From the sequence record OR699282.2: DNA of 64,000 bases; one strand, written 5' to 3'. Positions 11,931 through 58,055 of this stretch are shown piece by piece. The DNA comes from Escherichia phage BAU.Micro_ELP-22. A program made the translations under genes and the position numbers. The first letter of the stretch is position 1. Each line of letters begins with the position of its first letter. The notes under the pieces were generated by a model. It ran no database searches. It was not told where the DNA came from and saw nothing but the letters and a program-made list of their open reading frames with translations.

Positions 11931-12350
11931 ATGAAAAAGATTTTTTTAAGTATTATTTTAGTACTTTTTAGTTTTAATGTATATGCAGCAGATGCTAAAC
12001 AGGTTGCAAATACAGTAAAAGATGTTATAGTAGATAATGCTCCTACATTAGAGGAAATTGGGGTAAAAACTTGTGATATAGTAATATATAATTTAGTTAA
12101 TGATGAACGAGTTATGTTGAATACGTATGAACAAGTAGTCCCATTGGTTGAATCTGGTGATGCTTTTAGCTTTACATATAAAGTTAAATTAACAGGAGGG
12201 GTTGAAGTTAATCTTGACATTGATACCGCTTCAGTACTAAAAGATAAACTAGGATATGTGTTCAATCGTATTCGTGAAGAAGGTCATCTTAAGTATGTTT
12301 ATGAAAGTAAAATACTAAAACGTGCAATAGTTATAGAAAACTGTAAATGA
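11931..12350 (+). CDS. secreted protein
   Basis: ORF 139 aa; signal peptide; SD AAGGA. Confidence 0.65.
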   Translation: MKKIFLSIILVLFSFNVYAADAKQVANTVKDVIVDNAPTLEEIGVKTCDIVIYNLVNDERVMLNTYEQVVPLVESGDAFSFTYKVKLTGGVEVNLDIDTASVLKDKLGYVFNRIREEGHLKYVYESKILKRAIVIENCK

Positions 12351-12358
12351 TAATAAAA

Positions 12359-12391
12359 GGGTTGACTTCGGTCAGCCTTTTTTGTTATGAT
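12359..12391 (+). terminator. terminator with embedded promoter
   Basis: GGGTTGACTTCGGTCAGCC + T6, then TATGAT. Confidence 0.6.
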
Positions 12392-12419
12392 GTTGGTATT
12401 AACTACAGAGGATAAAGTA

Positions 12420-13061
12420 ATGACTAAGCAAGACATATTCAAAACTTTAATTGACATTTTGCGTCCATCAAAAACTCGTTGTGCGATGGAGTTTGATATT
12501 CCTTATGCTGAACGCGTAATCTTTCCACAAGTTAAAGCTGCTGGACTTACTTTGCTTGGAATGGGGATGTACTCTGTAGTAGTTGAACATAAAAACTATC
12601 CTGGACGTGCATTTAAAGTAACCACTTCACGCTGGGATGGTTTTCGTGCTTATGCAAAGTACTGCATTGAAAACGCAGGAACCAAGTTTCTTCCAGTGAT
12701 CTACAGTGCCAACGAACAAGGAAACTTTGGATGGTATGAGATGGACAAGTACTATCCTATAATTAAACAAAAAAATAATTATGATGACTTTGTTAGTACT
12801 AAAATTGGAGATTTATATTCTTATGCACATGCTGGTCAGTACGCTACTTCAGTGAATGATATGCGTGGTAATTCTGAAGAGATTGCTATTGCAACGGTCG
12901 CTGCTAACATCATGAAAGAGTTTCACGGGCGTTTTGTACCAGACATTCATTCCAGTAATGTCATGATGGATAAAGATGGCAATGTATTCATTACTGATCC
13001 TCTTTCGTGTGATGTACGTAGAGAAATACCAGTTACTGAAGAAGATCCAGTTTTTTATTGA
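12420..13061 (+). CDS. putative protein-kinase-like protein
   Basis: GxG loop, AFKV lysine motif, DIHSSNVMMD catalytic-loop-like segment; SD GAGGA. Confidence 0.5.
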   Translation: MTKQDIFKTLIDILRPSKTRCAMEFDIPYAERVIFPQVKAAGLTLLGMGMYSVVVEHKNYPGRAFKVTTSRWDGFRAYAKYCIENAGTKFLPVIYSANEQGNFGWYEMDKYYPIIKQKNNYDDFVSTKIGDLYSYAHAGQYATSVNDMRGNSEEIAIATVAANIMKEFHGRFVPDIHSSNVMMDKDGNVFITDPLSCDVRREIPVTEEDPVFY

Positions 13062-29072: not shown

Positions 29073-29140
29073 ATTCCCTCCTTTATTCATTATACTATAT
29101 TTAATACAAATAAGAAAGCCAGTACAAAGTACTGGCATAA
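29060..29140 (-). promoter_or_regulatory. conserved 5' cassette of RCC1 family: terminator hairpin GCCAGTAC-N3-GTACTGGC, TATAAT, SD
   Basis: Near-identical ~80-bp copies upstream of 8 of the 11 genes (ends near 30360, 31166, 32428, 33638, 36030, 37200). Confidence 0.6.
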
Positions 29141-29142
29141 TT

Positions 29143-30285
29143 TCAATAAACATCCCAAGGTAATGGTGTCTTCCTAAATCCATACCTGGTTGTGCTCGCA
29201 CCATCGCCAGCAATGTATCGACCGATGCCACATTGGTATAACTCTGTACTACTACATATAGCACCACCAATAGTACCACTACCCCACTGAATTATATTAG
29301 AATATGTTATTGGTAAATCACTACATTTAGTATATACACCAACGGTAGCAGAACCACTAATACCACCAAACATGCTTCGGTTAGCACCAGTGTAATATAT
29401 ACCATCTGGACTCATAAATGCAGAGGTGTACGTTGTACTACAATCCACTGGACTTCTTATAGTATTAAGATCGCCAGGGTATGTTCTAGCAGCATATACG
29501 TAAACATTACCATCAGTAGTAATACCATTACCCAACTGACCACTGTTCTGACCACCACACGTAACTAACGATGCAGAACCAGAAACAATTGCAGTAGCAT
29601 TATACGAAGTACCCATTGCAATAGAAGCACCAGACAATAGTTTTGGTGTAACGATAGCTGTTGTATTACCCTGTCCTAATTCACCATTTGTGTTACGTCC
29701 CCATGCGTATATAGAAGTCGTATCCAATCGACATAGTACTGAACCATAACTAAACGTATATCGCATGTCATTTACAGCAGAAGGCAAATTAACCTTAGTT
29801 GCAACACTAATAACACCACCAGTAACACCACTGTTTGCGTTCATGTTACGACCATATGCATATAAAGAACCATCTGAAGTTTTAATATGCATCATACCAT
29901 CTGTGCAATATAATGCATCGATGCTATCCACCGCAACCGGACCCATACTGGCAGTTATATCGGTCCACCCAAGAGTAGTAGTGCTAGAAATTAAGTTATT
30001 TCCTGCGTAAAGGATTCTATTATTATTAGTAACTACCACTGTATATCTAGCAGTAACTCCAATTAATCGAACATCAGTATATATCTTAGACCACGCACCT
30101 AGTGAATTGGTATTTGCATCCAAAAAGCCTAACTGCCCATCTGTATTGTATCCAATACCCCATACATCACCTGCACTGTCCAATAACACTTCATGTGAAA
30201 AGCCAATCTTAAAATCTTTTATTGTAGGAACTACTGGAACTGGTGCTATATTCCCGTACTTAACCATTCTTGCAAAAGGTAACAT
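29143..30285 (-). CDS. RCC1-like repeat protein, leader-peptide family
   Basis: Start at MLPFARMVKYGNIAPVP; motifs GYNTDGQLG, GRNTNGELGQGN, GGQNSGQLGNG. Confidence 0.8.
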   Translation of the reverse strand: MLPFARMVKYGNIAPVPVVPTIKDFKIGFSHEVLLDSAGDVWGIGYNTDGQLGFLDANTNSLGAWSKIYTDVRLIGVTARYTVVVTNNNRILYAGNNLISSTTTLGWTDITASMGPVAVDSIDALYCTDGMMHIKTSDGSLYAYGRNMNANSGVTGGVISVATKVNLPSAVNDMRYTFSYGSVLCRLDTTSIYAWGRNTNGELGQGNTTAIVTPKLLSGASIAMGTSYNATAIVSGSASLVTCGGQNSGQLGNGITTDGNVYVYAARTYPGDLNTIRSPVDCSTTYTSAFMSPDGIYYTGANRSMFGGISGSATVGVYTKCSDLPITYSNIIQWGSGTIGGAICSSTELYQCGIGRYIAGDGASTTRYGFRKTPLPWDVY

Positions 30286-30356
30286 AATTCCCTCCTTATT
30301 CATTATACTATATTTAATAAAAATAAGAAAGCCAGTATCAAGTACTGGCCTATATT

Positions 30357-31094
30357 TTAGACTGAATTGTTAGGATAATATCTCCCACGTCCCCATATTA
30401 TTCGCACAGCACCACCACCAGCAGCCGTATAAGAAAAATTATCCCATATACTACCACCACCACCATACATCTTACCAGCACCACCACTACCAGCACCACC
30501 ATTATATGAACCATCGTATCTACCGCCAATACCATTAGCACCTTGAACAATAATACCAGTACCACCACCCGTACCAATGAACGAGGTATTATAGAATGCA
30601 CCACCACCACCGCCGCCGCCAGCACCATTTTCACCAGTGATTGCATCTCCGTTACCACCTTTACCAGTGTAGCCACCAGCACCACCACCAATGACTGCAC
30701 CACCACTTACACCAGTATTGCCACCATTACCACCACCATCATTAATAGCGTTAGCAGCTTTTCCACCTAGTCCACCAACCGTATATGCACCAGTGAAGCT
30801 AACACATAGTTTTTCAGTTCCACGATATAAACCGTTTTCAACTGGTGTAGTAGTGTTGGTATGCGTAAGAGAAACACTTAAGTACTCACCACTAGTAACC
30901 GGAATATTATTACGCCACGATAAGCCGCCACCAGCACCACGTTGACCACCCGGCGAAATAACACATACTGATATTTCGGTAACGCCAGCAGGAACTGTAA
31001 ATTGTGTTGTTCCTATTGTCGTGATTAATTGTTCACCATGTGGCTTATATTCAATTTCATTCCCGTACTTAATCATTCTTCCAAAAGGTAACAT
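30357..31094 (-). CDS. glycine-rich protein carrying the same N-terminal leader
   Basis: 245 aa; MLPFGRMIKYGNE start then Gly-rich low-complexity body (GGxGxGG runs), no RCC1 motifs. Confidence 0.7.
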   Translation of the reverse strand: MLPFGRMIKYGNEIEYKPHGEQLITTIGTTQFTVPAGVTEISVCVISPGGQRGAGGGLSWRNNIPVTSGEYLSVSLTHTNTTTPVENGLYRGTEKLCVSFTGAYTVGGLGGKAANAINDGGGNGGNTGVSGGAVIGGGAGGYTGKGGNGDAITGENGAGGGGGGGAFYNTSFIGTGGGTGIIVQGANGIGGRYDGSYNGGAGSGGAGKMYGGGGSIWDNFSYTAAGGGAVRIIWGRGRYYPNNSV

Positions 31095-31166
31095 AATTCC
31101 CTCCTTTATTCATTATACTATATTTAATACAAATAAGAAAGCCAGTACTTTGTACTGGCTAAATTA

Positions 31167-32357
31167 TTACAATTGTCTAGGTGTATCCAGTACATATCTA
31201 TTTGTAGTAGGACCACCATCATCATATGTTCCGGTTGAATATATATTTTTCATATCAGCAGTTAGGAAAGTACGATACGAACCGCGATATATTTTTATTT
31301 TATCATACATAGAATATGTTATTCCTGACGGCAATGGACATGCAGTAAACTTACCAACAGTTGCACTAGTACCAATACCCAATGAACCAGCATAACTACT
31401 GGCATTTAAACCAGTTGCATATACACCAGTACTCGTAACTAGTATACTAGATTGTGTTGGGTATCCTGTATGAATTGAATACAAAGTTCCAGTTGGTAAT
31501 GTCGTACTATTGCTCCCTAATACAGCAAGTGCCGAACTGGTTGTGGTATTGTTACCCCATGCACCATTACTCGCTAAACCACCAACTAGAAACTGACGTG
31601 CACCAGAACTTGGATTCTCAACCAAAGCACTGACTGCACCACTTGAGCATCCAGTGTATTGTAACGTTTTTGTGTATGTTGTACTTGGTTTATATAAAGT
31701 ATATTCATTAAATGGTGTCCATGTGGTACTGGTACTTATACCTGACGTACCACCACCAATATATAAATTATTTTGTGTATCAAAAAACATTACACAGTTA
31801 TTTGTTGACTGTATTTGTGCAATATCAACATTAGGCGTGACAGCTTTTACAAATGATCCATCTGTTATTTGTTGAGTACTACCAGTACCATCAGCGAATT
31901 GTCTAGCCCCACTCCAACCAGTACTCCATATTGTATTATTATCCATTAATACCGTAAACCACGTAGTACCTCCATACATCTGTTTAATTGAAGTACTTGA
32001 ACTTTGCGTGTACAAATTTTCAATATATTGGTTATAACTTAAAAACGTAGTAGTACTAGTTGGTAAACCAACATGATCACCATATCCACAATAAAAATAA
32101 TTTGAGTCATTATCTTTTACTAATAAAGTTCCTTGTGTAACCCAGCAATCGTTAACGTTTTCTCTAATTAATGTCCATGATTTTAATGCAGTGTTGTTTC
32201 CCCTACCAAATTTCCCAAAACTATTATTCCCACGTGCATATAGTTGACCATCCGTATACAGAACAACAACATCTAAATCAGTTGGGATTATTTTCTTAAT
32301 TTGAAGTGGTACTGGGGCAATATTCCCATAATTCATCATTCTTGCAAAAGGTAACAT
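31167..32357 (-). CDS. RCC1-like repeat protein, leader-peptide family
   Basis: 396 aa; MLPFARMMNYGNIAPVP start. Confidence 0.75.
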   Translation of the reverse strand: MLPFARMMNYGNIAPVPLQIKKIIPTDLDVVVLYTDGQLYARGNNSFGKFGRGNNTALKSWTLIRENVNDCWVTQGTLLVKDNDSNYFYCGYGDHVGLPTSTTTFLSYNQYIENLYTQSSSTSIKQMYGGTTWFTVLMDNNTIWSTGWSGARQFADGTGSTQQITDGSFVKAVTPNVDIAQIQSTNNCVMFFDTQNNLYIGGGTSGISTSTTWTPFNEYTLYKPSTTYTKTLQYTGCSSGAVSALVENPSSGARQFLVGGLASNGAWGNNTTTSSALAVLGSNSTTLPTGTLYSIHTGYPTQSSILVTSTGVYATGLNASSYAGSLGIGTSATVGKFTACPLPSGITYSMYDKIKIYRGSYRTFLTADMKNIYSTGTYDDGGPTTNRYVLDTPRQL

Positions 32358-32428
32358 AAATTCCTCCTTTATTCATTATACTATATTTAATACAAATAAG
32401 AAAGCCAGTACAGTGTACTGGCATTATA

Positions 32429-33568
32429 TTATTTCCACGGTAGAAGTGAATCAGGAACCCTTGTTGGTACAGTAGTTGAAGACATTCCAGTAAGATTGGG
32501 TACACCACATGTGTATAAATTATTATATTCGTCAACTAACATCGTATAAGAATAGCTCTTACAAAAACTACTAAGATTACTACCTTCTAATGCAGTAAGA
32601 TCCATTTCAGCGAATGATGTTATATACATATCAGTTGTACCAATACCACATTGACCATTTGAATTAAGGCCACATGAAAATAACTTATTATTATTATTAA
32701 TTATACAGGATGGTCCGGTAAGGTTTGTCCCAAGCTCACCCACCAACTCCACTTCTCCTTGGAATGATAAATTTGGAATTAATGTACTCATTGGGGCTAC
32801 TGACCTATTTCCTGTACCTGCTTGTCCATAGTCGTTAATAGATGCAACTTTAACATTACCATCATTAAGAAATATATAAGAAGTTTCATTTGTATTGACT
32901 GCTTTAATTGCATTACTAATCGAAGTATCTTGTGTAAATGTGAGCAAGTTTTGTGTCGTCGTTCCTGATACAAACGTTCTACCTGCATACCAATATGAAC
33001 CATCATTTAGTACTAATCCAGTACTATATATTGCACAACCAGCACTGATAACATTTTCTATTGTACTATAGGTGAATCGTGAAACGCTTGAAGTTGATCC
33101 ATTCCCAAAAACACCACCAGTACCAGCACCACAGTAGAACCACTTTCCATTTTTTAAAAATACACGCATACACGAAGATATCACAACACTATCAATATCA
33201 TCTGCACTGACACCGAAATCAGTAAAGTTCTGTGTTATATCAACCCAAACGCCGTTAGTGTTTGAAGATAGTATTGGAATAACAGTACGTCTACCAGTGT
33301 ACCAAATAGTACCATCTTTCTTTATAGCAATTGTTCCTTGTACCCCACCCCAATATCGTGTAACATTTGAGTTGACAAGAGTCCATTCAGTTGAAGAGTC
33401 CAATGAACCATTACCACTTTGTCCATATGCTGAAGAACCAAACCAATATAGATTGCCATTTGTGTGTAAATAAAATTTGGCATCAGCAGAACATTGTAAC
33501 CTGTTTTTAGGTAGAATCAGTTCAGGTGCGATATTCCCGTACTTAACCATTCTTGCAAAAGGTAACAT
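32429..33568 (-). CDS. RCC1-like repeat protein, leader-peptide family
   Basis: Start at internal MLPFARMVKYGNIAPE; motifs GLNSNGQCGIG. Confidence 0.75.
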   Translation of the reverse strand: MLPFARMVKYGNIAPELILPKNRLQCSADAKFYLHTNGNLYWFGSSAYGQSGNGSLDSSTEWTLVNSNVTRYWGGVQGTIAIKKDGTIWYTGRRTVIPILSSNTNGVWVDITQNFTDFGVSADDIDSVVISSCMRVFLKNGKWFYCGAGTGGVFGNGSTSSVSRFTYSTIENVISAGCAIYSTGLVLNDGSYWYAGRTFVSGTTTQNLLTFTQDTSISNAIKAVNTNETSYIFLNDGNVKVASINDYGQAGTGNRSVAPMSTLIPNLSFQGEVELVGELGTNLTGPSCIINNNNKLFSCGLNSNGQCGIGTTDMYITSFAEMDLTALEGSNLSSFCKSYSYTMLVDEYNNLYTCGVPNLTGMSSTTVPTRVPDSLLPWK

Positions 33569-33638
33569 ATTCCCTCCTTTATTTGTTATACTATATTTAA
33601 TACAAATAAGAAAGCCAGTACAGTGTACTGGCATTATG

Positions 33639-34748
33639 TTATTTTGGTAAATCAATTTTAGTAAAGACTGCAACATCCTCGATTGCACCTGGAATGGCGT
33701 AATACGATCCAGTACTATACACATCTCCATTTTTGGTTAATATCGATGTCAAACCATCACTAAAAAGAACATCCCTAATCTCACTAACTTCAACGGGTAA
33801 TTGTAAATTGGTAGCACTATATATAGCACCAGTTTGAGAATTGTTTAATCCCAAACCACGGTTCGCCCCAACACCCTTCTGATATGTACTAGTAATTACC
33901 ATTTGTGTAGCAGTATTTAAGGCAGGTGAATTCGTCATAAACAATGGAGAACTATTAGGCAAAGTACTTACAGGAACTGCACGGAATGTAGTCGTACCTG
34001 AACTAAGAAAGTTTGGAGTTTGACCACATACGAAATATGATGTACCATTATAGTAATTTAATGCATTACCACCAATGGCTGCATCGATTACACCAGAACT
34101 ACGCAATCCCCAAGTGTTAATTTGTGTTTGGTTCCCCGTACCATGCTGCCCACTACTATTCCATCCAGAACTATATAGCTTATTATCTAATGTAAGATAC
34201 ATACTATCATTCGCATTGGTCATTACTTTACGAACGTTCGTAGCACATTGAGTTAATGTGTAAATTGATGAGGAACCAATACCCAAAGAACCACGATATC
34301 CATTATCTCCTGCACCATAGAGTACTGAATTAGTGCTAAGTACAAATATTAAACCATTTGTACATACAATATTAGCAATTTCACTTACTGGTATAGCATT
34401 GGTAAACCAATTAGTTCTTTCAACTAATACAGTACTGTAAGAAGTAGTTGTAGAAGATGAGAACCAGTACGTTTGACCTGATGTCCATATCGTATTATCA
34501 TTTTTAATAATAACAAGTGTACGATCACCCACGAAAAAATTAGAAACATCTGCACTTACTAATGTCCACGAAGACACCGTGTTGGTATTACCATTTCCAG
34601 ATTCACCACCTTGATTTCTACCTATGTAATATAAATCATGTGAATCAGTCAATAAGAATTGGCCTTGGGTAGAAGCACCAACTTTAATTATTTTTTTAGG
34701 ACCAGGGACAATATTTCCATACCTAATCATTCTTCCAAAAGGTAACAT
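33639..34748 (-). CDS. RCC1-like repeat protein, leader-peptide family
   Basis: Start at MLPFGRMIRYGNIVPGP; GWNSSGQHGTGN; SD overlaps the stop of the upstream gene. Confidence 0.75.
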   Translation of the reverse strand: MLPFGRMIRYGNIVPGPKKIIKVGASTQGQFLLTDSHDLYYIGRNQGGESGNGNTNTVSSWTLVSADVSNFFVGDRTLVIIKNDNTIWTSGQTYWFSSSTTTSYSTVLVERTNWFTNAIPVSEIANIVCTNGLIFVLSTNSVLYGAGDNGYRGSLGIGSSSIYTLTQCATNVRKVMTNANDSMYLTLDNKLYSSGWNSSGQHGTGNQTQINTWGLRSSGVIDAAIGGNALNYYNGTSYFVCGQTPNFLSSGTTTFRAVPVSTLPNSSPLFMTNSPALNTATQMVITSTYQKGVGANRGLGLNNSQTGAIYSATNLQLPVEVSEIRDVLFSDGLTSILTKNGDVYSTGSYYAIPGAIEDVAVFTKIDLPK

Positions 34749-34756
34749 ATTCCCTC

Positions 34757-35959
34757 CTATTGTTGCCATAACTGCGTTGGCATTAATGTTAGTGTAGTAG
34801 TACTATAAGTGCCATCTGGCAATCTACCACCATTTCCATTCCAGCCACCACATGCATATAATTTATAATCTTTAGTAATTATTATGGTTCTGCTCCAATC
34901 TTTAGATGCCATAAGAACATTGTCATAACCACCACTTATTGCACTAAGATTAAAAATATTCCAAGTTCTAACTAATGTATTAGTTCCATTACCTTCTTGA
35001 CCATATGAGTTAGCACCACTACTTCTAACATATGGTGCGTATTGTGCCATAGGTGCACCAATTGATGCATTTCCCATATTACTTGGACAAATAAAAGTAC
35101 TGTACTTACTTACATCAACCGTGACCGATGTGTTCCTAATTGGTGTTAGCTGATTTACCGATGTAGTCGTACCATTACCAGCTTGTCCAGAACTGTTAGC
35201 CCCGCTATAATATACAGACCCACCAGTAGTAAACCACCAAGTAACATCGTATGTAGTACTAATATGTTCTACATTACTAATCACGAATTTGTTCAAATAT
35301 ACAACAGAACTACCACCACATCCACTTTCACCAAAGTTATCCTTACCACAAAACCATGCATCTTTATTTGATTTGATATAGTGCGTTCCTTGTAATGAAC
35401 ATGCCATATGTGTAACTTCACCCATATTAGTCATAACTGTGAGTGTAGGGATGGAATTTTTATTCCCAGAGCCACATTCACCATTAGTATTTCTTCCACA
35501 CGCAATTACTCTACCATCGGTTAATAATATTCTAGTACTTTCACCTATATATACACTCTTGATCATATTAGCCATAACACCTATTTTATTAAATGCAACA
35601 GTAACATCAGTCCATGTTGTCAAATAACCATTAACAGGTGTTGCATCTCCATAATCAGAAAATGCACCCACAGACCCAGTGTAGTATATTTTATTATCCA
35701 AATCAATCATCAATGAACCTTGAACACCAAGCCAAAAGGCTGCACAGTTCCTTGCAAGTACTGTAAATGACGAAACTGCTGCTGAATTCCCAAGACCAAA
35801 TTGATAAAAGTTATTACTACCATAACCATATAAAGTATTAGTTGGGTTATGGAGATACATACAGTTTGTATAATGTTGTTGTAAAACATCTGAGAACTCT
35901 ACAGGTACTGGACCTGGTGCAATATTTGCGTACTTAACCATTCTTCCAAAAGGTAACAT
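34757..35959 (-). CDS. RCC1-like repeat protein, leader-peptide family
   Basis: 400 aa; MLPFGRMVKYANIAPGP; GANSSGQAGNG, GRNTNGECGSGN. Confidence 0.8.
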   Translation of the reverse strand: MLPFGRMVKYANIAPGPVPVEFSDVLQQHYTNCMYLHNPTNTLYGYGSNNFYQFGLGNSAAVSSFTVLARNCAAFWLGVQGSLMIDLDNKIYYTGSVGAFSDYGDATPVNGYLTTWTDVTVAFNKIGVMANMIKSVYIGESTRILLTDGRVIACGRNTNGECGSGNKNSIPTLTVMTNMGEVTHMACSLQGTHYIKSNKDAWFCGKDNFGESGCGGSSVVYLNKFVISNVEHISTTYDVTWWFTTGGSVYYSGANSSGQAGNGTTTSVNQLTPIRNTSVTVDVSKYSTFICPSNMGNASIGAPMAQYAPYVRSSGANSYGQEGNGTNTLVRTWNIFNLSAISGGYDNVLMASKDWSRTIIITKDYKLYACGGWNGNGGRLPDGTYSTTTLTLMPTQLWQQ

Positions 35960-36030
35960 ATTTCCCTCCTTTATTCATTATACTATATTTAATACAAAAA
36001 GAAATGCCAGTATCAAGTACTGGCATCGTA

Positions 36031-37140
36031 TTACTTGGGTAATGGAATTGTGGTCCATCTATTTGCGGCAACGTCACCTGGTACATATGTAGGACTACCA
36101 CTTACAGCAATAGTTTCATTACCATCATATACAACACTGAAGTTTGTGCACGTATACAACGCTGCGGCATCTGGATTGTAATTTTCAAGTGTTAGTGTAT
36201 TGGTGAACAAATTCAATGCAGTAGTTGAGCCGTTTTTACCATATGCACCTGTAGTATATATCTTTCCTTCTGTTGTTGAGTACATATTAACATATGACCC
36301 AGATGATGATTTAGCAATTTTATCTATCTTGCTATCTATTGTTTTAGAGTTAAATTGAAATGGATATACCTGTACGTTAGTATCTAAACCATTTCCCAGT
36401 TCCCCATTTAACTGCCACCCTGTGTGGTACATTCCCGCATTTGTATATGCAAGCGTACTATACGCATTACCACCCATTATTTTAGTGCCAGATAATTTTA
36501 AACCAAACGATGTCCACTTACCAGTTTCATTTCCTATGGAACCATAAGCACTTGTACCACACGCACGAAGCTCGCCATTTGACGTTAGAAGCACTGTATT
36601 ATTAACGTTACCAAATATATCAATAACCTGATTAGTGCCATTATTCAGTACTGAAGTAAAAGTACTCTGTGAGTAAGTACTACCTGAACCAACAGAACCA
36701 TTTGTGTTCATACCTCTTCCATATACAATTTTACCATCAGCACTAACATAGTGCATTGAATCAAAACCAATGGATATCATTTTAATATCAGATATATCTG
36801 GAAATGAAGAAGTTACATCTACTCCACCTAGTGGAATTGTATTATTTCCTAAACCTAATGAGACATTAGTTCCGTGCATTATAAATTTATCTTCTTTAAA
36901 ATATAAAATATTATATCCACCAGCCCATGCATTATTAACGCCATTTGTAATCAGTACCCATTTATTTTGTGTAGTAGTTCCAGTAATATTTAACTGTTGA
37001 TAGTTATTGATTCCACAACCATATAGCGATCCATCACCATATAGTACATATAAATTATCATATCCTGCAATAACTTTCTTTATTTTTTTGGGTACAGGTG
37101 CTACGTTCCCATAATTCATCATTCTTGCAAAAGGTAACAT
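36031..37140 (-). CDS. RCC1-like repeat protein, leader-peptide family
   Basis: 369 aa; MLPFARMMNYGNVAPVP; first gene of the array, divergent from the 37244 promoter. Confidence 0.8.
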   Translation of the reverse strand: MLPFARMMNYGNVAPVPKKIKKVIAGYDNLYVLYGDGSLYGCGINNYQQLNITGTTTQNKWVLITNGVNNAWAGGYNILYFKEDKFIMHGTNVSLGLGNNTIPLGGVDVTSSFPDISDIKMISIGFDSMHYVSADGKIVYGRGMNTNGSVGSGSTYSQSTFTSVLNNGTNQVIDIFGNVNNTVLLTSNGELRACGTSAYGSIGNETGKWTSFGLKLSGTKIMGGNAYSTLAYTNAGMYHTGWQLNGELGNGLDTNVQVYPFQFNSKTIDSKIDKIAKSSSGSYVNMYSTTEGKIYTTGAYGKNGSTTALNLFTNTLTLENYNPDAAALYTCTNFSVVYDGNETIAVSGSPTYVPGDVAANRWTTIPLPK

Positions 37141-37243: not shown

Positions 37244-37471
37244 ATGACAAATACTCTTAAGTACTACCTGAATACTCTAAATGAACTAGAGTACGGTGAG
37301 TTTCTCGCAGATAGTTCGTGGCTAATTGAGCTAAAAAATTATAATAGTCCAGGATGCACCCTTATGATGAACAATGCAATTGATACCCTCATAGTAAGCA
37401 TATTGCACAGCAACATCTGCGGGGATAGCAATAAACAATTATCAAAAATCTTAGTACTGCTATCTATATGA
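37244..37471 (+). CDS. small protein, tandem family S (75 aa)
   Basis: SD AAGGAGAA; first member of array. Confidence 0.6.
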   Translation: MTNTLKYYLNTLNELEYGEFLADSSWLIELKNYNSPGCTLMMNNAIDTLIVSILHSNICGDSNKQLSKILVLLSI

Positions 37472-37671
37472 ATATCGAACAGTACTACATCGATGCACTA
37501 CCAACAAAAGGTCTACGTGAAAGCCTACTGCATACACAAACTAATTTCAAACACCTCAAACGTAGCCCTAAACTCCTGAACTCGTACAGGAATAATAACA
37601 TAAGAAATGCTTTACAAGGGGTAGAATGTATGCAATACTATTACATCCTTACCCTATTAATCGAGTACTAA
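37468..37671 (+). CDS. small protein, tandem family S
   Basis: 67 aa; ends LTLLIEY. Confidence 0.6.
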   Translation: MNIEQYYIDALPTKGLRESLLHTQTNFKHLKRSPKLLNSYRNNNIRNALQGVECMQYYYILTLLIEY

Positions 37672-37672
37672 T

Positions 37673-37882
37673 ATGAATACTGAACATAAAGAATTCTACA
37701 CCAAATACCTTAGCAACGAAGAACAATTGTTTCTAAGGAGTGTATCACCTGTAAGTACCAATACTCAATTCGGTAGAGATTGCTTTAATAATTGTATACG
37801 TAGTACTCTAGAAGCAATCGAATGCAATAACAAAAATATTATGTACTCAGGTTTAATAGGACTAATATATTTCTATGAATAA
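37673..37882 (+). CDS. small protein, tandem family S
   Basis: 69 aa; MNTEHKEFY..C..LIYFYE. Confidence 0.6.
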   Translation: MNTEHKEFYTKYLSNEEQLFLRSVSPVSTNTQFGRDCFNNCIRSTLEAIECNNKNIMYSGLIGLIYFYE

Positions 37883-38069
37883 TCATAAAGATTTCTATTG
37901 TAGTAAACTACCCAAACAAGAACAGCTATCATTCTCTTTAGCACCACCTATGAGAAAGGATAATCTGTATTATAATTACGATTTCAGGATGGTGACACGT
38001 TATGCAATAGAACATCAGTTCCCTGAAACTAAGTACCGCTCTATCCTGAACCTCATCTTTAAGTTCTAA
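37875..38069 (+). CDS. small protein, tandem family S
   Basis: 64 aa; MNNHKDFY..LIFKF. Confidence 0.6.
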   Translation: MNNHKDFYCSKLPKQEQLSFSLAPPMRKDNLYYNYDFRMVTRYAIEHQFPETKYRSILNLIFKF

Positions 38070-38121
38070 AAGGTACACCAGGGACCGAGTACTTTAATAT
38101 AGTAAGGCTAATTACATTATA

Positions 38122-38307
38122 ATGAATCATATAAGCTACTACTACCAACAACTATCCGACAGAGACAAGTACAGTCACAACTCCCATGTGTGGTACTACA
38201 AACGCGGCAGTATAAGAGACAAACAACATTACTTCTGTATTTCTATTAAAGAAGCACTGACAACTAAGTACACGTACCGAGCAGTACTTAAACTTATTGA
38301 AATGTAA
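38122..38307 (+). CDS. small protein, tandem family S
   Basis: 61 aa; ..YTYRAVLKLIEM. Confidence 0.55.
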   Translation: MNHISYYYQQLSDRDKYSHNSHVWYYKRGSIRDKQHYFCISIKEALTTKYTYRAVLKLIEM

Positions 38308-38317
38308 AGAGAATACT

Positions 38318-38500
38318 ATGAACATTGAATTGTACTTAAGTAAATTACAGCCTGGCGATAGATTCATCTACAATAAGTTCGAATTCAACTACAAGAACGG
38401 GAGCAACAAATATCGTCGAGGATACCTATATACAAGCACAAGAGATGCACAAAACGAAAAGTACACATACAGAGAAGTACTTAAACTAATCTCTATTTGA
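38318..38500 (+). CDS. small protein, tandem family S
   Basis: Internal ATG; ..YTYREVLKLISI. Confidence 0.55.
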   Translation: MNIELYLSKLQPGDRFIYNKFEFNYKNGSNKYRRGYLYTSTRDAQNEKYTYREVLKLISI

Positions 38501-38508
38501 GGTAATAT

Positions 38509-38694
38509 ATGAATACATTTGAGTACTATACCAATAAACTATCTATGCCTGAAAGATCTCATCTCTATGTGTGGAGAAATGCGTATAAAAGCGGCAATAA
38601 ACTTATACAAAGAAATTCCCTTACAGTGTGTACAAATTTAATTAAAGCAGAGTACCGCACATATATTGAAGTACTCAAACTGATAGCAATATAA
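38509..38694 (+). CDS. small protein, tandem family S
   Basis: 61 aa; MNTFEYY..C..VLKLIAI. Confidence 0.6.
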   Translation: MNTFEYYTNKLSMPERSHLYVWRNAYKSGNKLIQRNSLTVCTNLIKAEYRTYIEVLKLIAI

Positions 38695-38702
38695 GGTACT
38701 CT

Positions 38703-38882
38703 ATGCAAGAATTCTATATCTATAACCTCCAGCACAAAGATAGATACAACTATAATAAATTCCAAAGGTACTACACAGTCGGGAACAAAAGAGATAAAAA
38801 ACGTTATCTACTCTCGTGTACAGTAGAAGCACAAAACGAAAAGTACACGTACAGAGAAGTACTTAAACTAATCTCAATCTAA
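38703..38882 (+). CDS. small protein, tandem family S
   Basis: 59 aa (below track cutoff); MQEFY..YTYREVLKLISI. Confidence 0.55.
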   Translation: MQEFYIYNLQHKDRYNYNKFQRYYTVGNKRDKKRYLLSCTVEAQNEKYTYREVLKLISI

Positions 38883-38889
38883 GGTAGAC

Positions 38890-39078
38890 ATGAACACTTT
38901 TGAGTACTACTTCAATAAACTAAACCACATAGAACAAAGTATGCACTACACATTTATTCAGAACCATCAATCATCTTCACCTCTAATTAAAAACATATCG
39001 ATTGAGATTATAACTAACAGTGTACTGTCATCTGAACGTTATATGTATATTGATGTACTGAAACTCATCTCTATGTAA
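38890..39078 (+). CDS. small protein, tandem family S
   Basis: 62 aa. Confidence 0.6.
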   Translation: MNTFEYYFNKLNHIEQSMHYTFIQNHQSSSPLIKNISIEIITNSVLSSERYMYIDVLKLISM

Positions 39079-39086
39079 GGAATACT

Positions 39087-39266
39087 ATGCAACAATTCTA
39101 TAGAGAACACATAAGCATTAAAGACCGTTTCATGTACGACACCTTCGTGAAGTACTACAAACTAGGAACAAAAAGTACTAAAAATATTAATCTCAATAGC
39201 TGCATTTATGCTGTACTAACACAAGATAATCCCTACAGGGAAATCATTGCCCTGGCATCTATATAA
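39087..39266 (+). CDS. small protein, tandem family S
   Basis: 59 aa (below track cutoff); MQQFY.. Confidence 0.5.
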   Translation: MQQFYREHISIKDRFMYDTFVKYYKLGTKSTKNINLNSCIYAVLTQDNPYREIIALASI

Positions 39267-39276
39267 AGGAAACCAA

Positions 39277-39936
39277 ATGAAACTTAATCCACACAGCAAA
39301 CAATACCTTAAGCACTTTAAGTACCTCAACAGTATTCAAGCAGAATCTTTTACACCAACATATACTTACGACCCGTGTGTACTAAAGAAACGAAATAAAA
39401 AGAAAAAATCCAGAAATGTTCTCGTATCTAAGAACCTCAAATCGTACTTGAAGAAAAATAATATAGCTCTTGCTTTTATTAATATCTATAATACTGATTT
39501 AAAAGTATTGAGTACTAATACCAGCACAAAAGCACTAAAGAATGCATCTATCTATATACACATGGATAATATCCCGTGCACTATAATTCTATCTTTCGGG
39601 AATGTATACTTCTTCGGGAATTGTAATAGCACCCATGATATCAGTACTGCACAATTCCAAATCGGCGATATGTACTGCATGGGTTCAGAAAAAATACACG
39701 ATAACATGCACTTCTTCCAAAAGCAACGTACTAACGAAACTGATACAGTACTGCAATTCCTCAAAGAACTAGAACACAAAGAATTATCCGAGGAAGAAGA
39801 ATTCATGTACAGTACTGTAATCGATAATCCAGGACTCTATAAAAACGCGTACAAACTAACAAAACATGTACAGGAACTTATCAGTACTGATAAGAAATTT
39901 CATCACCTCATTACGTATATTTCAAACTATGTATAA
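39277..39936 (+). CDS. hypothetical protein (219 aa) inserted in small-gene array
   Basis: Internal ATG with SD AAAGGAAA; unrelated to array members. Confidence 0.55.
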   Translation: MKLNPHSKQYLKHFKYLNSIQAESFTPTYTYDPCVLKKRNKKKKSRNVLVSKNLKSYLKKNNIALAFINIYNTDLKVLSTNTSTKALKNASIYIHMDNIPCTIILSFGNVYFFGNCNSTHDISTAQFQIGDMYCMGSEKIHDNMHFFQKQRTNETDTVLQFLKELEHKELSEEEEFMYSTVIDNPGLYKNAYKLTKHVQELISTDKKFHHLITYISNYV

Positions 39937-40111
39937 AGAATACTACAAAGATAAAATCCCAATGCATCTACAACACCATATACCAAACGTTGCATTGGGT
40001 ATCAAAGATCACGCAAAGATAATGTTCCAACAATGTACTAAGTACACGCTCATATACGATGATAATCCATATATGCTGTACTACGTAGTAATGCTAACAT
40101 TCAGGTACTAA
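39929..40111 (+). CDS. small protein, tandem family S
   Basis: MYKEYYKDKIPMHLQ..LTFRY; start overlaps upstream stop. Confidence 0.55.
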   Translation: MYKEYYKDKIPMHLQHHIPNVALGIKDHAKIMFQQCTKYTLIYDDNPYMLYYVVMLTFRY

Positions 40112-40112
40112 T

Positions 40113-40292
40113 ATGAATACTTATAAAGAATTCTACCTCTCGTACCTTAATTCCGATATAGTAACATCCAATACATTCAGTACTAAAATTATCTATAATG
40201 AAGTAATGAAAGAATGTATTAAAGGTGCTATTAACCCTAAAGATACGTATGACTTGTACTATGCAGTACTAACCCTTGTTTTCACGAAATAA
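40113..40292 (+). CDS. small protein, tandem family S
   Basis: 59 aa (below cutoff); MNTYKEFY..C..LVFTK. Confidence 0.5.
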   Translation: MNTYKEFYLSYLNSDIVTSNTFSTKIIYNEVMKECIKGAINPKDTYDLYYAVLTLVFTK

Positions 40293-40300
40293 CACATAAT

Positions 40301-40492
40301 ATGAATAACCACAAAGAATACTACATAGAGAAACTCCCAATGTATCTACAACACCTTGTACCAACAGAACCATTGCGTATAGAAAAAGACTACGAAAAAG
40401 ACTATTTCATTAAGTGCACTAAATCCTCGATAGATATTGAGGACTATAATAGAGTACTGTATCACATCCTTTTACTAATATATAAGTACTAA
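40301..40492 (+). CDS. small protein, tandem family S
   Basis: 63 aa; MNNHKEYYIEKLPMYLQ..C..LLIYKY. Confidence 0.65.
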   Translation: MNNHKEYYIEKLPMYLQHLVPTEPLRIEKDYEKDYFIKCTKSSIDIEDYNRVLYHILLLIYKY

Positions 40493-40493
40493 T

Positions 40494-40682
40494 ATGAATA
40501 ACCACAAAGAATACTACATAGAGAAACTCCCAATGTATCTCCAGAGCCAGATACCAAACGTTGCATTGGGCATAAAAGATGACGCAAAAACAATGTTCCA
40601 AGAATGTACTAAGTACACCCTAATGTTCGAGGATAGAACATATAAACTGTACTACATCCTCGCCCTAATATTCAAGTACTAA
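40494..40682 (+). CDS. small protein, tandem family S
   Basis: 62 aa; N-terminus identical to previous member, tail ALIFKY. Confidence 0.65.
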   Translation: MNNHKEYYIEKLPMYLQSQIPNVALGIKDDAKTMFQECTKYTLMFEDRTYKLYYILALIFKY

Positions 40683-40692
40683 AGAGAATAAT

Positions 40693-40881
40693 ATGAATAA
40701 CCACAAAGAATACTACATACAATTTCTCCCCAGTATATTTGAACACTACGCCAGATATAAAGTCCCCCTGGATAACGATTTGGCAGTACTGGGATTCAAT
40801 AATTGCATAGAACGAAGTATAGAAAATAGTAGTAGTTATGACCAGCTATATAACACTATCCTACTTATATTCAGGTACTAA
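40693..40881 (+). CDS. small protein, tandem family S
   Basis: 62 aa; ..LLIFRY. Confidence 0.65.
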   Translation: MNNHKEYYIQFLPSIFEHYARYKVPLDNDLAVLGFNNCIERSIENSSSYDQLYNTILLIFRY

Positions 40882-40882
40882 T

Positions 40883-41071
40883 GTGTATAAAGAATACTAC
40901 ATAAAAGATTTACCACCGCACCTTCAAGGTAATCTGTTAGAAGATGAACCTCGCGGTATAGAAATAAACTACGAAAAAGACTACTTTATTACGTGCACTA
41001 AATGCGTGATAAATTATTACAACTACAATCAAGTACTGTATCATACCCTGTACTTAGCATTCGTATTCTAA
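40883..41071 (+). CDS. small protein, tandem family S (GTG start)
   Basis: Family frame begins VYKEYYIKDLPP at GTG; ATG lost relative to paralogs. Confidence 0.5.
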   Translation: MYKEYYIKDLPPHLQGNLLEDEPRGIEINYEKDYFITCTKCVINYYNYNQVLYHTLYLAFVF

Positions 41072-41080
41072 GAGAACAAT

Positions 41081-41269
41081 ATGCATAAAGAATACTACAC
41101 AAAATATTTCCCAATGTACCTCAGAACTAATCTATTAGATAAACCTCGCGGTATCAATGCTCAAAACGATAAAGTGTACTTTACTATGTGCACTAAAGCA
41201 TGTATACTAGATTTTGATAGCTATCATCGAGTACTGTATCATACCCTGTACCTAGCTTTCGTATTCTAA
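41081..41269 (+). CDS. small protein, tandem family S
   Basis: 62 aa; MHKEYY..C..YLAFVF. Confidence 0.65.
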   Translation: MHKEYYTKYFPMYLRTNLLDKPRGINAQNDKVYFTMCTKACILDFDSYHRVLYHTLYLAFVF

Positions 41270-41278
41270 AAGAACAAT

Positions 41279-41464
41279 ATGCATAAAGAATTCTACTTAA
41301 GCCATCTCGATCTAAACTCCCAAATGCTTATACCACTAATCCCAATAGATATCAAGGATAAGAAAAATACCGAACAATTCATTTACCATACACAGTGTGC
41401 GATCACCCCAAATTACATTCCATATGAATTGTACTACATTCTCGCCCTAATATATAGGTACTAA
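41279..41464 (+). CDS. small protein, tandem family S
   Basis: 61 aa; ..ALIYRY. Confidence 0.65.
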   Translation: MHKEFYLSHLDLNSQMLIPLIPIDIKDKKNTEQFIYHTQCAITPNYIPYELYYILALIYRY

Positions 41465-41465
41465 T

Positions 41466-41651
41466 ATGCATAGAGAATACTACACACAATTTGTTAAAGG
41501 GAACTACAAACATGCCGTACCCAGAACCCCTTTAAATTTTCATGACCCAAGTACTATATTCTTGTTCCATGACGCAATACGTACAGTACTCAATACTAAA
41601 GATGAAGATGTGCAGTACGTATTCTTACTATTACTTATATACAGACACTAA
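41466..41651 (+). CDS. small protein, tandem family S
   Basis: 61 aa; MHREYY..LLLIYRH. Confidence 0.6.
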   Translation: MHREYYTQFVKGNYKHAVPRTPLNFHDPSTIFLFHDAIRTVLNTKDEDVQYVFLLLLIYRH

Positions 41652-41656
41652 CTAAT

Positions 41657-41866
41657 ATGAATAAAGAACATAAAGAATTCTACTCCAAATACATAAGCCC
41701 CTCAGAACAAATGTTTCTAAGGACTACAGCACCTTTAAGTACTAATACATTTTTCGGCAGAGTATGCTACAATAATTGTATTCAAATGACTTTAAACGCA
41801 AACGAAGATGGTAACAGTACTAACCTGTACTCAGGTATCATAGGTATACTATTCCTGTATGAATAA
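41657..41866 (+). CDS. small protein, tandem family S
   Basis: 69 aa; close paralog of 37673..37882. Confidence 0.65.
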   Translation: MNKEHKEFYSKYISPSEQMFLRTTAPLSTNTFFGRVCYNNCIQMTLNANEDGNSTNLYSGIIGILFLYE

Positions 41867-42047
41867 TTACAAAGACTTCTATTTGAATACACTACCTACT
41901 GTACTTTCTCTAAGTGCTCAATGTAAAATCCCCCTGGATAATGCTTACGCCAGATATAGCTATTCCATAACTGTTAATCGATGTATAGAGAATCATTGCA
42001 GTACTAACCAGTACTATAACATAATCCTACTTATATTCAGGTACTAA
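41859..42047 (+). CDS. small protein, tandem family S
   Basis: 62 aa; ..LLIFRY. Confidence 0.6.
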   Translation: MNNYKDFYLNTLPTVLSLSAQCKIPLDNAYARYSYSITVNRCIENHCSTNQYYNIILLIFRY

Positions 42048-42048
42048 T

Positions 42049-42231
42049 ATGAATAAAGAACATAAAGAATTCTATATACGAAAACTAACATTCGTCCCCG
42101 TAAGAATATATAAAGAATGCGACCCAAGATTATACCTATGGCACTTCAATGAGTGCATAAAAGATTCTATATACCCTAAGAACTATAAAGAACAATTGTG
42201 CTCAGTACTAACACTAGTACTATCATATTAA
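42049..42231 (+). CDS. small protein, tandem family S
   Basis: 60 aa. Confidence 0.6.
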   Translation: MNKEHKEFYIRKLTFVPVRIYKECDPRLYLWHFNECIKDSIYPKNYKEQLCSVLTLVLSY

Positions 42232-42246
42232 TTAATAGAGAATACT

Positions 42247-42447
42247 ATGCATAAAGAGTATAAAAACTTCTATATAAGTAAACTAAAAGAAAATGAACAA
42301 GTATGGATTAGATCTATAATTCCACTGGCATTTAATAGATATGCATTTAACAGATGTACCGAGATTGCTATAGACCCTTATAATATTAAAGAGAATGTAC
42401 AGTATAATCAGTACTACTATATCTTAATGCTTATATATAGAAAGTAA
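42247..42447 (+). CDS. small protein, tandem family S
   Basis: 66 aa; ..LMLIYRK; last member. Confidence 0.6.
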   Translation: MHKEYKNFYISKLKENEQVWIRSIIPLAFNRYAFNRCTEIAIDPYNIKENVQYNQYYYILMLIYRK

Positions 42448-53350: not shown

Positions 53351-53356
53351 AAAAAG

Positions 53357-53388
53357 TGGTTGACTCCGGTCAGCCATTTTGCTATTAT
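53357..53388 (+). terminator. terminator with embedded promoter (GGTTGACTCCGGTCAGCC variant)
   Basis: Hairpin + TTTTGC + TATTAT; same cassette near 57394, 60385, 62648. Confidence 0.5.
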
Positions 53389-53913: not shown

Positions 53914-54008
53914 TATAAAAAAATAGTTTGACAATAGATTATAGTACTGTATAATAGTTTACATCAAGGGGAGAATAGTTCTCCCCACTAACAGAGAGAG
54001 AAAACAAA

Positions 54009-54483: not shown

Positions 54484-54582
54484 AATATATTACCAGTACT
54501 ATTAAATCTATTGACAATGTTTGATAGTACTGTATAATAAGTTTTATCAACAGTAGTTAACTTAACCTAAGAGAGAAACAAA

Positions 54583-55029: not shown

Positions 55030-55360
55030 ACTATTGACAATATCATCCAGTACTGGCATAATACTTACATCAAGACGAGAACGTCACTAACCCATAGGGT
55101 GCACAAATGTAACTGTATAATATTGATCAAAAAATGATCTGATCAATACTTGATCAATTTGCGTAAAGTAGTATAATTCTATGCAGTTGGTTAGACGAAA
55201 GGTTATGATTAGTAGTGCAAGTGTATAAAAATTTTCATGGTGTATCGTTCCGCACATATGGGGATGAATATGTGGTATCATGTGGATTGGAAAAAGTAAG
55301 AACAAGTAATATTATTGTCGCATTACAGTACTATAGTATTTTTATAATGAGGTTAAAATA

Positions 55361-55618
55361 ATGGCTGTAGGATTCGCGAAAGATGGGGCCGAACAAGACG
55401 AGATTAACGCAGTGATTCAGGCTGCCGTTAACCACGCTAGAAAGCAAATTAACGCACAAATAGAATCACTGATACATTGCCTCGACTGCGGCGATATAAT
55501 CCCTGAGAAACGACGCCAGGCCGTTAAGGGATGTAAGTACTGCATAACTTGCCAGGAGGATCATGATAGTACTTTTAAACGTCCCCCGCGTAATTGTTGG
55601 CATAGATCTATGAGATAA
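55361..55618 (+). CDS. TraR/DksA-family C4 zinc-finger protein
   Basis: CLDCGDIIPEKRRQAVKGCKYCITCQE matches the CxxC-N17-CxxC TraR/DksA finger as recalled. Confidence 0.8.
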   Translation: MAVGFAKDGAEQDEINAVIQAAVNHARKQINAQIESLIHCLDCGDIIPEKRRQAVKGCKYCITCQEDHDSTFKRPPRNCWHRSMR

Positions 55619-55682
55619 AAAGTAATTGACAGTACTGAAAGATAGTGTATAATGTTTTATATCTTAACTGAGGATAGTAATC

Positions 55683-56657: not shown

Positions 56658-56740
56658 AAACTATTGACAATGCAATCCAGTACTGTATAATAAGTTACAT
56701 GAAGGGGAGAAATGATTCTCCCCACTGAGAGGAAAGAAAA

Positions 56741-57379: not shown

Positions 57380-57553
57380 AAATAATTGAAAAAGGGATTG
57401 ACTCCGGTCAGTCCCTTTGCTATTATATACGCATAGAAACAAATCAGCCCACAGGGTGCATAAATGTATCTATTGTTAGCTGGTGGCTAGTACTGAAAAC
57501 TATTTTTAAAAAGTACTTGCATTGTACTTAGAATCAAGTATAATGTTTTACAT

Positions 57554-57969: not shown

Positions 57970-58055
57970 GTATTGACAAAGTATCTTAGTACTGTATAAT
58001 AGTTTACATCGAGAGGGGGAATGGTTCCCCTCCTAACTAAAAGAGAGAAATAAAA

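Follow-up and report, generated by a model that had tools for sequence, protein, structure and literature searches.

Phage homologues of TraR redirect host RNA polymerase (RNAP) from ribosome synthesis without triggering the stringent response. The locus described here raises the question of whether a small zinc-finger protein of a jumbo coliphage belongs with these proteins and, if it does, which of their properties can reasonably be expected of it. The window, as we call it below, is the whole stretch of DNA that was analysed, 64,000 nucleotides from Escherichia phage BAU.Micro_ELP-22 (sequence record OR699282.2), and all positions without another reference are counted from its first letter. 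A preliminary description of this DNA had already pointed to a TraR/DksA-like protein in an early-gene block, which would bind the RNAP secondary channel and help the phage to take over host transcription.

The gene and its family

Positions 55361-55618 of the plus strand read as an ORF from ATG to TAA, that is, 85 aa and a stop codon, and its full 85-residue translation is MAVGFAKDGAEQDEINAVIQAAVNHARKQINAQIESLIHCLDCGDIIPEKRRQAVKGCKYCITCQEDHDSTFKRPPRNCWHRSMR. The preliminary description was exact in its coordinates and also in its account of the motifs, as both CxxC-N17-CxxC and IPE.RR can be read in the sequence. The gene and its parts are the following:

55361..55618, plus strand: zinc-finger gene, encoding an 85-aa DksA/TraR-family C4 zinc-finger protein of a YbiI-like phage clade
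55349..55352, plus strand: Shine-Dalgarno sequence GAGG, 8 nt 5' of the zinc-finger ATG, read from the sequence
55361..55408, plus strand: N-terminal signature MAVGFAKDGAEQDEIN, residues 1-16, a putative channel-inserting tip that holds D8-G9-A10
55478..55552, plus strand: C4 zinc finger, Cys40-x-x-Cys43, 17 residues, Cys61-x-x-Cys64 (from the sequence and PF01258)
55499..55516, plus strand: IPEKRR, residues 47-52, corresponding to TraR I44-P45-E46-A47-R48-R49 (hhalign; query numbering is that of TraR + 3)
55574..55615, plus strand: C-terminal tail FKRPPRNCWHRSMR, residues 72-85, near-invariant in the phage clade and not present in TraR

We take the 85-aa ORF to be a genuine gene, because its dN/dS is low and because it has full-length homologues beyond its close relatives. 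The dN/dS ratio is 0.085 against the vB_Ec-M-J orthologue (13.5 synonymous and 5.5 non-synonymous changes) and 0.10 against the 121Q orthologue (16.5 and 8.5, respectively); the gene is under purifying selection. The homologues in question, with 62-74% amino-acid identity to it over the full length, come from outside the circle of close Asteriusvirus relatives, and T4-like phages carry several. ORFs of 42-45 aa that run across the gene on the minus strand are without support, and we regard them as spurious. An identical protein in phage E9.1 is annotated as 'DksA-like zinc-finger protein', and the 121Q orthologue, gene 294, as 'C-4 type zinc finger protein'. The DksA-like annotation of the gene is already public, and the kind of system is known.

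Membership of the DksA/TraR family is supported at the level of sequence, profile and predicted fold, and in this respect the preliminary assignment is borne out. Pfam PF01258 (zf-dskA_traR) matches residues 39-68 with 41.2 bits (E 1.6e-10), above its gathering cut-off of 24.9 bits, and PHROG 54, 'DksA-like zinc-finger protein', is matched with E 1.1e-18. When a profile of 37 homologues is compared with the TraR-family profile by hhalign, query residues 19-74 are aligned with TraR 16-71 (probability 99.2%, E 7.4e-20); against DksA the probability is 87%, and the alignment covers the finger region only (query 31-68 with DksA 106-143). Among PDB sequences, YbiI (2KGO) is matched with E 2e-12, collinearly over residues 1-74, and TraR (6N57_M) with E 1e-5. 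Zinc-finger matches outside the DksA/TraR family, in Pfam, NCBIfam, the PDB sequence search and Foldseek, all have E 0.04 or worse.

The AlphaFold2 model, which was made on the homologue alignment (pLDDT 72.7, pTM 0.41), predicts a long N-terminal helix (residues 5-32), a short helix (49-54), a C-terminal helix (62-71), two zinc knuckles and a low-confidence tail. With the moderate confidence of such a model, the layout of a helix, a zinc-knuckle globule and a C-terminal helix is present. A lack of any likeness to the TraR/DksA fold had been named in the preliminary description as the point on which its reading would fall. The likeness is found: the three best Foldseek matches in the PDB are, in this order, YbiI, RNAP-bound TraR (6N57_M) and DksA in an RNAP-promoter complex (7KHI_M). 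The Foldseek match to TraR 6N57_M has a TM score of 0.59 (normalised to TraR) and an rmsd of 3.6 A over 67 columns.

Within the family, comparison of sequences places the protein in a YbiI-like branch and not in the canonical TraR branch. The TraR subfamily model TIGR02419 gives 52.5 bits, under its NCBIfam cut-off of 59.7, and the TraR equivalog PRK13715 gives 30.1 bits, under a cut-off of 108. The YbiI equivalog PRK11019 gives 81.4 bits, which is under its cut-off of 96, with an alignment that spans profile positions 1-71 of 88. Hence, what stands of a TraR/DksA-type reading is the family; the TraR subfamily does not stand, given the scores under the TraR cut-offs, the 18 N-terminal residues that remain unaligned and the DxxDxA motif of which half is kept. 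In a profile search among 1.84 billion cluster representatives the number of relatives was 2,594 with a limit of E<=1e-3 and fell to 337 with E<=1e-10. The C4 motif could be located in 117 of the best 150 of these relatives, and the N-terminal counts among representatives given below rest on those 117.

The finger, the tip and the tail

TraR is understood in some detail as a ligand of RNAP. Its N-terminal helix (residues 2-27) brings the DxxDxA motif (D3, D6, A8) to the active site, its globular zinc domain (28-57) binds the rim helices of beta-prime via R48, P43 and P45, with E46, R49 and K50 in contact with beta-prime Si3, and its C-terminal helix (58-73) touches the beta lobe-Si1 (PMC9239242, PMC6970531).

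The zinc domain of the phage protein follows this plan in most of its contact residues. The finger consists of Cys40-Leu-Asp-Cys43 (CLDC) at 55478-55489 and Cys61-Ile-Thr-Cys64 (CITC) at 55541-55552, and C40, C43, C61 and C64 are invariant across homologues. Between the two pairs, I47, R51 and R52 are invariant among the 37 homologues, and P48 and E49 are at least 90% conserved. TraR P45, E46, R48 and R49 are thereby kept, as P48, E49, R51 and R52 of the query; TraR P43 and K50, which correspond to Ile46 and Gln53, are not kept. Further towards the C-terminus, hhalign sets D69 against TraR E66 and K73 against TraR K70. The predicted helix 62-71 aligns with TraR up to residue 71, and next to it comes the Pro-containing, low-confidence tail of 14 residues. 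There is an extra cysteine, Cys58, which is unconserved and alternates with Val in the clade; given this alternation, a second metal site made of Cys58, Cys79 and His81 is unlikely.

Among about 100 diverse representatives, no part of the protein is more conserved than its N-terminal segment, and such strong conservation is what one would expect of a functional tip. The query carries the YbiI-type signature MAxG[FW]AxDGAxQ in the form MAVGFAKDGAEQDEI. M1, A2, G4, G9 and Q12 do not vary among the 37 homologues, and K7 and A10 hardly do. The pattern MAxG[WF]xxDGAVQ[DE]QI[DE] is present in 98 of the 117 C4-bearing representatives; its D is kept in 84 and its A in 82 of these 98, and in 83 of them the first Cys is at position 39 (position 40 in the query).

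How this segment relates to DxxDxA is less easy to judge. The tip reads F5-A-K-D8-G9-A10, in which the D-x-A half of the TraR motif is kept and a conserved F/W replaces the first Asp. Profile comparison by hhalign gave no alignment of the 18 N-terminal residues to TraR or DksA, and MAFFT set TraR DxxDxA against MAVGFAKD, so that the motifs disagree. The equivalence of D8/A10 with TraR D6/A8 (or with DksA D74/A76) is given by neither program as an alignment result, and we keep it as a motif-level lead. A gap-free extension of the hhalign register (offset 3) puts D-x-A one residue off TraR D6-x-A8. As a motif reading and not as a computed alignment, D8-G-A10-E-Q12-D-E resembles the DksA tip D74-R-A76-A-Q78-E-E. 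The phage protein also reaches about 3 residues further N-terminal than TraR, in which the distance between Ser2 and the catalytic Mg is already as small as 4.3 A (PMC6970531). With regard to activity, some C4 zinc-finger homologues of the DksA/TraR family that have no DxxDxA are inactive, and incomplete motifs are accompanied by lower activity (PMC9239242).

The other terminus is peculiar to the phages. The tail FKRxPRNCWHRSMR, recognised by its NCWH, occurs in 45 of 45 phage-clade clusters, and in only one of the 117 C4-bearing representatives among the best 150 relatives, where a single 50%-identity cluster stands for the whole phage clade. Bacterial members of the YbiI type end in ...NRRGSKDSQLR (39 representatives), and only R77, which is invariant, and R85, which is at least 90% conserved, are shared by the phage tail and the bacterial clade. 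The tail also matches phrog_25948; this match is explained by a chimeric 63-aa ORF of Mosigvirus JN02 that keeps just the second CxxC and the tail. A YbiI-like tip and a phage-specific invariant tail appear to be all that is undescribed in this system.

Genomic setting and the upstream ORF

The window is DNA of an Asteriusvirus, a 121Q/PBECO4-like jumbo coliphage. Over 3 kb around the gene the DNA shares 98.5% identity with Escherichia phage vB_EcoM_CRJP21 and 90-98% with E9.1, SP27, PBECO4, 121Q and other Asteriusvirus jumbo coliphages (347-386 kb). Judged by these relatives, the gene is located about 11 kb inside a direct terminal repeat of roughly 20 kb, in a block of very small genes with perfect sigma-70 consensus promoters. 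The E9.1 record begins at about position 44,018 of the window, and counted from there the gene comes after about 11.3 kb. The vB_Ec-M-J orthologue (12,349-12,606) is inside an annotated direct terminal repeat of 21,525 bp, and fEgEco12, in which the match to the 3-kb query is at 9-13 kb, has an experimentally supported repeat of 20,993 bp (PMC13070987). Moreover, E9.1 and CRJP21 are each hit twice by the 3-kb query, as expected for a gene of the terminal repeat. A tRNA scan of the window found none.

Perfect sigma-70 consensus sites, TTGACA-N16/17-TATAAT, number 14 in the window, where 0.16 would be expected, and every one of them is on the plus strand. AGTACTG stands directly before the -10 hexamer in 10 of the 14, with two more one base off, and the discriminators are AT-rich at 12 of the 14. 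Consensus promoters with AT-rich discriminators usually form stable open complexes, and inhibition of the DksA/TraR type is not expected for them. The elements around the zinc-finger gene are:

55034..55062, plus strand: promoter-like TTGACA-17-CATAAT with the phage-typical CAGTACTG, a consensus match and the likely promoter of the unit formed by the 48-aa ORF and the zinc-finger gene
55150..55177, plus strand: second, weaker promoter-like TTGATC-16-TATAAT, a consensus match 5' of the same unit
55215..55361, plus strand: 48-aa ORF, phrog_38664 (E 7e-36), whose stop overlaps the zinc-finger ATG by 1 nt (TAATG)
55626-55653, plus strand: perfect promoter 3' of the zinc-finger gene, which serves a small GNAT acetyltransferase gene

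We also considered the TATAAT at 55343-55348 as a promoter of the zinc-finger gene itself and rejected it, since the best -35-like hexamer leaves a spacer of 14-15 nt and transcription would start no earlier than the Shine-Dalgarno sequence. TGATCA repeats are clustered 5' of the gene.

In CBB, a more distant jumbo phage, a region of small ORFs with RpoD-like promoters extends into the terminal repeat, and early host-takeover genes have been proposed there (PMC5259590). An early-gene block, as the preliminary description had it, can reasonably be inferred from the promoters and the terminal repeat: the promoter-rich setting is there, and so is the terminal repeat as known from a relative, while early timing would follow from these. 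A search of the literature found no Asteriusvirus transcriptome.

The 48-aa ORF and the zinc-finger gene are probably co-transcribed and translationally coupled. In 121Q both are annotated, as genes 293/294; the upstream ORF given in the E9.1 record is shorter. It is tempting, and speculative, to regard the 48-aa product as a partner protein. A complex of VP882 TraR with QisA, the product of the upstream co-transcribed gp60, strongly boosts growth arrest (bioRxiv 10.64898/2026.07.27.740977). The homologue of the T4-like Dhakavirus CLB_P2 is found in the tk-rI region, among small genes and with an unrelated upstream neighbour; the 48-aa ORF is not similar to the ORF that precedes this homologue. 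A conserved two-gene module is ruled out by this unrelated neighbour, though a partner specific to one lineage is conceivable, and as the T4-like phages show, the zinc-finger gene travels as a module of one.

Possible function and comparison with known systems

In our opinion the protein is fairly probably an early-made member of the YbiI branch that acts on the secondary channel of host RNAP and diverts host transcription. We infer RNAP binding, promoter selectivity, early timing and a benefit to the phage. The zinc-knuckle globule with its invariant IPExRR would rest on the beta-prime rim helices where the secondary channel of host RNAP opens. The 28-residue N-terminal helix would extend down the channel and bring the tip D8-G9-A10-x-Q12 near the active site, and the short C-terminal helix together with the basic phage tail would contact the beta lobe/Si1 or another partner. 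Open complexes would then be destabilised, with no need for ppGpp, at host promoters that are kinetically fragile, those of rRNA and ribosomal proteins, as they are by TraR and lambda Orf73, and the host RNAP freed in this way would pass to the phage's own consensus early promoters with AT-rich discriminators.

The nearest characterised relative, both by sequence (E 2e-12) and by fold, is however YbiI and not TraR. One may argue from this that the fold is a mere scaffold and that the role is of the YbiI type, directed through the conserved termini at stress, metal or another host target, and not a TraR-like control of initiation. Indeed, the family has a conserved N-terminal signature and C-terminal tails of its own that are absent from TraR, but the TraR residues for the rim helices and Si3 are invariant in the query family. 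The N-terminus cannot be aligned to TraR or DksA and its DxxDxA is incomplete, but the D-x-A of the tip is kept. YbiI itself reportedly rescues a dksA-null strain (PMC2613031), and metal homeostasis would be an odd task for a gene that a lytic phage carries in an early-type block. Given these points, we consider a role of the YbiI type to be unlikely.

The coupling with the upstream ORF suggests a variant of our preferred explanation, which overlaps with it: the zinc-finger protein could act only in complex with the 48-aa product, as VP882 TraR does with QisA, and growth arrest or takeover would then be the work of this complex. That precedent, the 1-nt overlap of stop and ATG, the pair kept in 121Q and the fact that the 48-aa ORF is itself a conserved family (phrog_38664) are on its side. 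We nevertheless hold such a strict dependence to be quite improbable, as the T4-like homologues have an unrelated upstream neighbour and E9.1 annotates a shorter upstream ORF. Very improbable, in our opinion, is a nucleic-acid-binding regulator whose C4 finger and basic tail (KR.PRN.WHR.MR) would act on phage or host DNA or RNA instead of RNAP. All significant matches are to the DksA/TraR family, the members of which act without DNA binding (PMC9239242); the other zinc-finger matches do not go below E 0.04, and a DNA-binding domain is not recognisable. It is true that the tail is basic, aromatic and invariant in the phage clade, and that the TGATCA repeats are clustered upstream, but the matches pointing in this direction are weak and sub-threshold (ribosomal S26e and RPA12, and in Foldseek ribosomal and zinc-finger chains with E around 1).

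If we return to action at the RNAP secondary channel, a bolder version of it deserves mention, which we offer as a doubtful, tentative idea. The phage clade, which comprises Asteriusvirus, related Salmonella jumbo phages and many T4-like phages, may be a lytic-phage form of the YbiI/TraR scaffold with a distinct function. Its Gly tip (G4, F/W5, D8-G9-A10), about 3 residues longer than that of TraR, would reach the RNAP catalytic centre in another way than TraR does, and its tail would engage a target that is not a target of TraR, either another element of RNAP or a partner such as the 48-aa product. If true, this would be a mode of host RNAP control not yet described for the family. As a find in a genome scan the gene is routine, and the YbiI branch is a large one, with >2,500 cluster representatives. 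What deserves attention is that a separate, YbiI-like branch has become fixed in phages that are strictly lytic and rely on the RNAP of their host, namely the jumbo Asteriusvirus and many T4-like phages. This branch poses two questions, whether the D-x-A half-motif is enough for activity and what role the invariant phage tail has.

Of the known systems, YbiI (2KGO; PRK11019, 'DksA/TraR family C4-type zinc finger protein') is the nearest by sequence and fold, with about 40% identity. Common to both proteins are the N-terminal signature MAxG[FW]AxDGAxQ, the C4 finger with N17 and IPxxRR, and they are of similar size (85 vs 88 aa). They differ in the tail, where bacterial ...GYNRRGSKDSQLR is replaced by FKRxPRNCWHRSMR in the phage protein, and in that the gene is phage-borne and not chromosomal. 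At high expression YbiI rescues the amino-acid auxotrophy of a dksA-null strain (data not shown in that report), and its authors thought an involvement in iron metabolism likelier (PMC2613031). Our search of the literature found no functional study of YbiI besides this one and no test of homologues from T4-like or jumbo phages.

With DksA the phage protein shares a homologous finger domain, and RNAP-bound DksA is the third-best fold match. Unlike DksA, it is about half the size and has one N-terminal helix, not a two-helix coiled coil. The ppGpp-site residues of DksA lie in the coiled-coil segment, and an 85-aa protein is too short for that segment. It is in this respect like TraR, that is, small and without the DksA coiled coil, and presumably ppGpp-independent.

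The homology to F TraR (6N57, 5W1S) extends over query residues 19-74, with 26% identity; the identity to lambda Orf73 is 38%. The helix-globule-helix layout, the C4 finger with its 17-residue spacing and the equivalents of P45/E46/R48/R49 are common to TraR and the phage protein, and both are encoded on mobile elements, among early-type genes. With lambda Orf73 it further shares one more Cys, where TraR has V55 (PMC9239242). Unlike TraR, it has F-x-x-D-G-A in place of DxxDxA, about 3 extra N-terminal residues and a conserved 14-residue tail instead of the end of the TraR C-terminal helix. Of the phage TraR homologues put to the test, 5 of 5 were able to bind RNAP and to inhibit rRNA promoters, and burst size is increased by lambda Orf73 (PMC9239242). 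The TraR homologues tested so far all come from temperate phages or plasmids, whereas the source phage of the protein described here is strictly lytic and very large.

Promoters, hairpins and a GATC cluster

Perfect TTGACA-N16/17-TATAAT promoters occur 14 times in the window, against 0.16 expected, and all 14 of them are on the + strand. In 10 of the 14 the TATAAT hexamer is directly preceded by AGTACTG, and in two more by a one-base variant of it; the combination of AGTACTG and the consensus resembles an extended promoter signature specific to the phage. AT-rich discriminators are present in 12 of the 14. Six of these consensus promoters have, about 10 nt 3' of the -10 hexamer, a conserved hairpin rich in GC (such as GGGGAGAATAGTTCTCCCC). 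It would give early transcripts a predicted stem-loop at their 5' end, which may stabilise the mRNA or act as a regulatory site.

773-62374, + strand: span of the perfect consensus promoters (e.g. 53928-53955, 54511-54538, 56664-56691)
53966-53988, 56702-56724, 58012-58034, 58282-58305, 60857-60879 and 62386-62408 (approximate coordinates): GC-rich post-promoter hairpins
53353-53380 and 57391-57418: two near-identical hairpins with a 12-bp stem, AAAG(T/G)G(G/A)TTGACTCCGGTCA...
55117-55160: TGATCA/GATC motif cluster, ATTGATCAAAAAATGATCTGATCAATACTTGATCAATT

In the two near-identical hairpins the TTGACT of the stem also serves as a -35, in the promoter-like sequence TTGACT-17-TATTAT. Both hairpins lie between small genes and resemble a terminator and a promoter combined in one element. 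The TGATCA/GATC cluster is found between two promoter-like sites, 5' of the zinc-finger gene and the 48-aa ORF that precedes it, and may be an operator or an element sensitive to Dam/SeqA.

The terminal repeat and the ORF blocks before it

Position 1 of the record of the related phage E9.1 corresponds to window position ~44,018; therefore the window here leaves the right-hand, unique portion of the genome and enters the direct terminal repeat. This repeat measures ~19-21.5 kb (E9.1, vB_Ec-M-J), and window ~44-64 kb is probably carried in two copies by each packaged genome. A short way 5' of the boundary is an array of small ORFs, and a block of large ones lies on the opposite strand.

37244-42447, + strand: 23 or more ORFs of ~59-81 aa each, back to back in a tandem array
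24300-37140, - strand: run of about eleven large ORFs, 245-460 aa

The array ORFs are diverged paralogues with the common pattern MNxHKEYY...LLIFRY and a mean pairwise identity of 24% (range 9-61%); in relatives they are annotated only as hypothetical proteins. The minus-strand block may also be a paralogous gene family. Its annotation comes from one ORF overlapping the searched stretch (36031-37140) and the neighbours of that ORF in relatives, where 'regulator of chromosome condensation' (RCC1-like) appears several times over.

A related reading frame in Mosigvirus JN02

JN02 2390-2581: unannotated 63-aa ORF, corresponding to phrog_25948

Over its C-terminal 27 residues (CVGCQSMRDEIFKREPRNCWHRSMR) this ORF matches the YbiI-like phage homologues of the zinc-finger protein, in the part that comprises their second zinc knuckle and tail; the N-terminus of the ORF is unrelated. 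The ORF looks like a chimera or a remnant of recombination.
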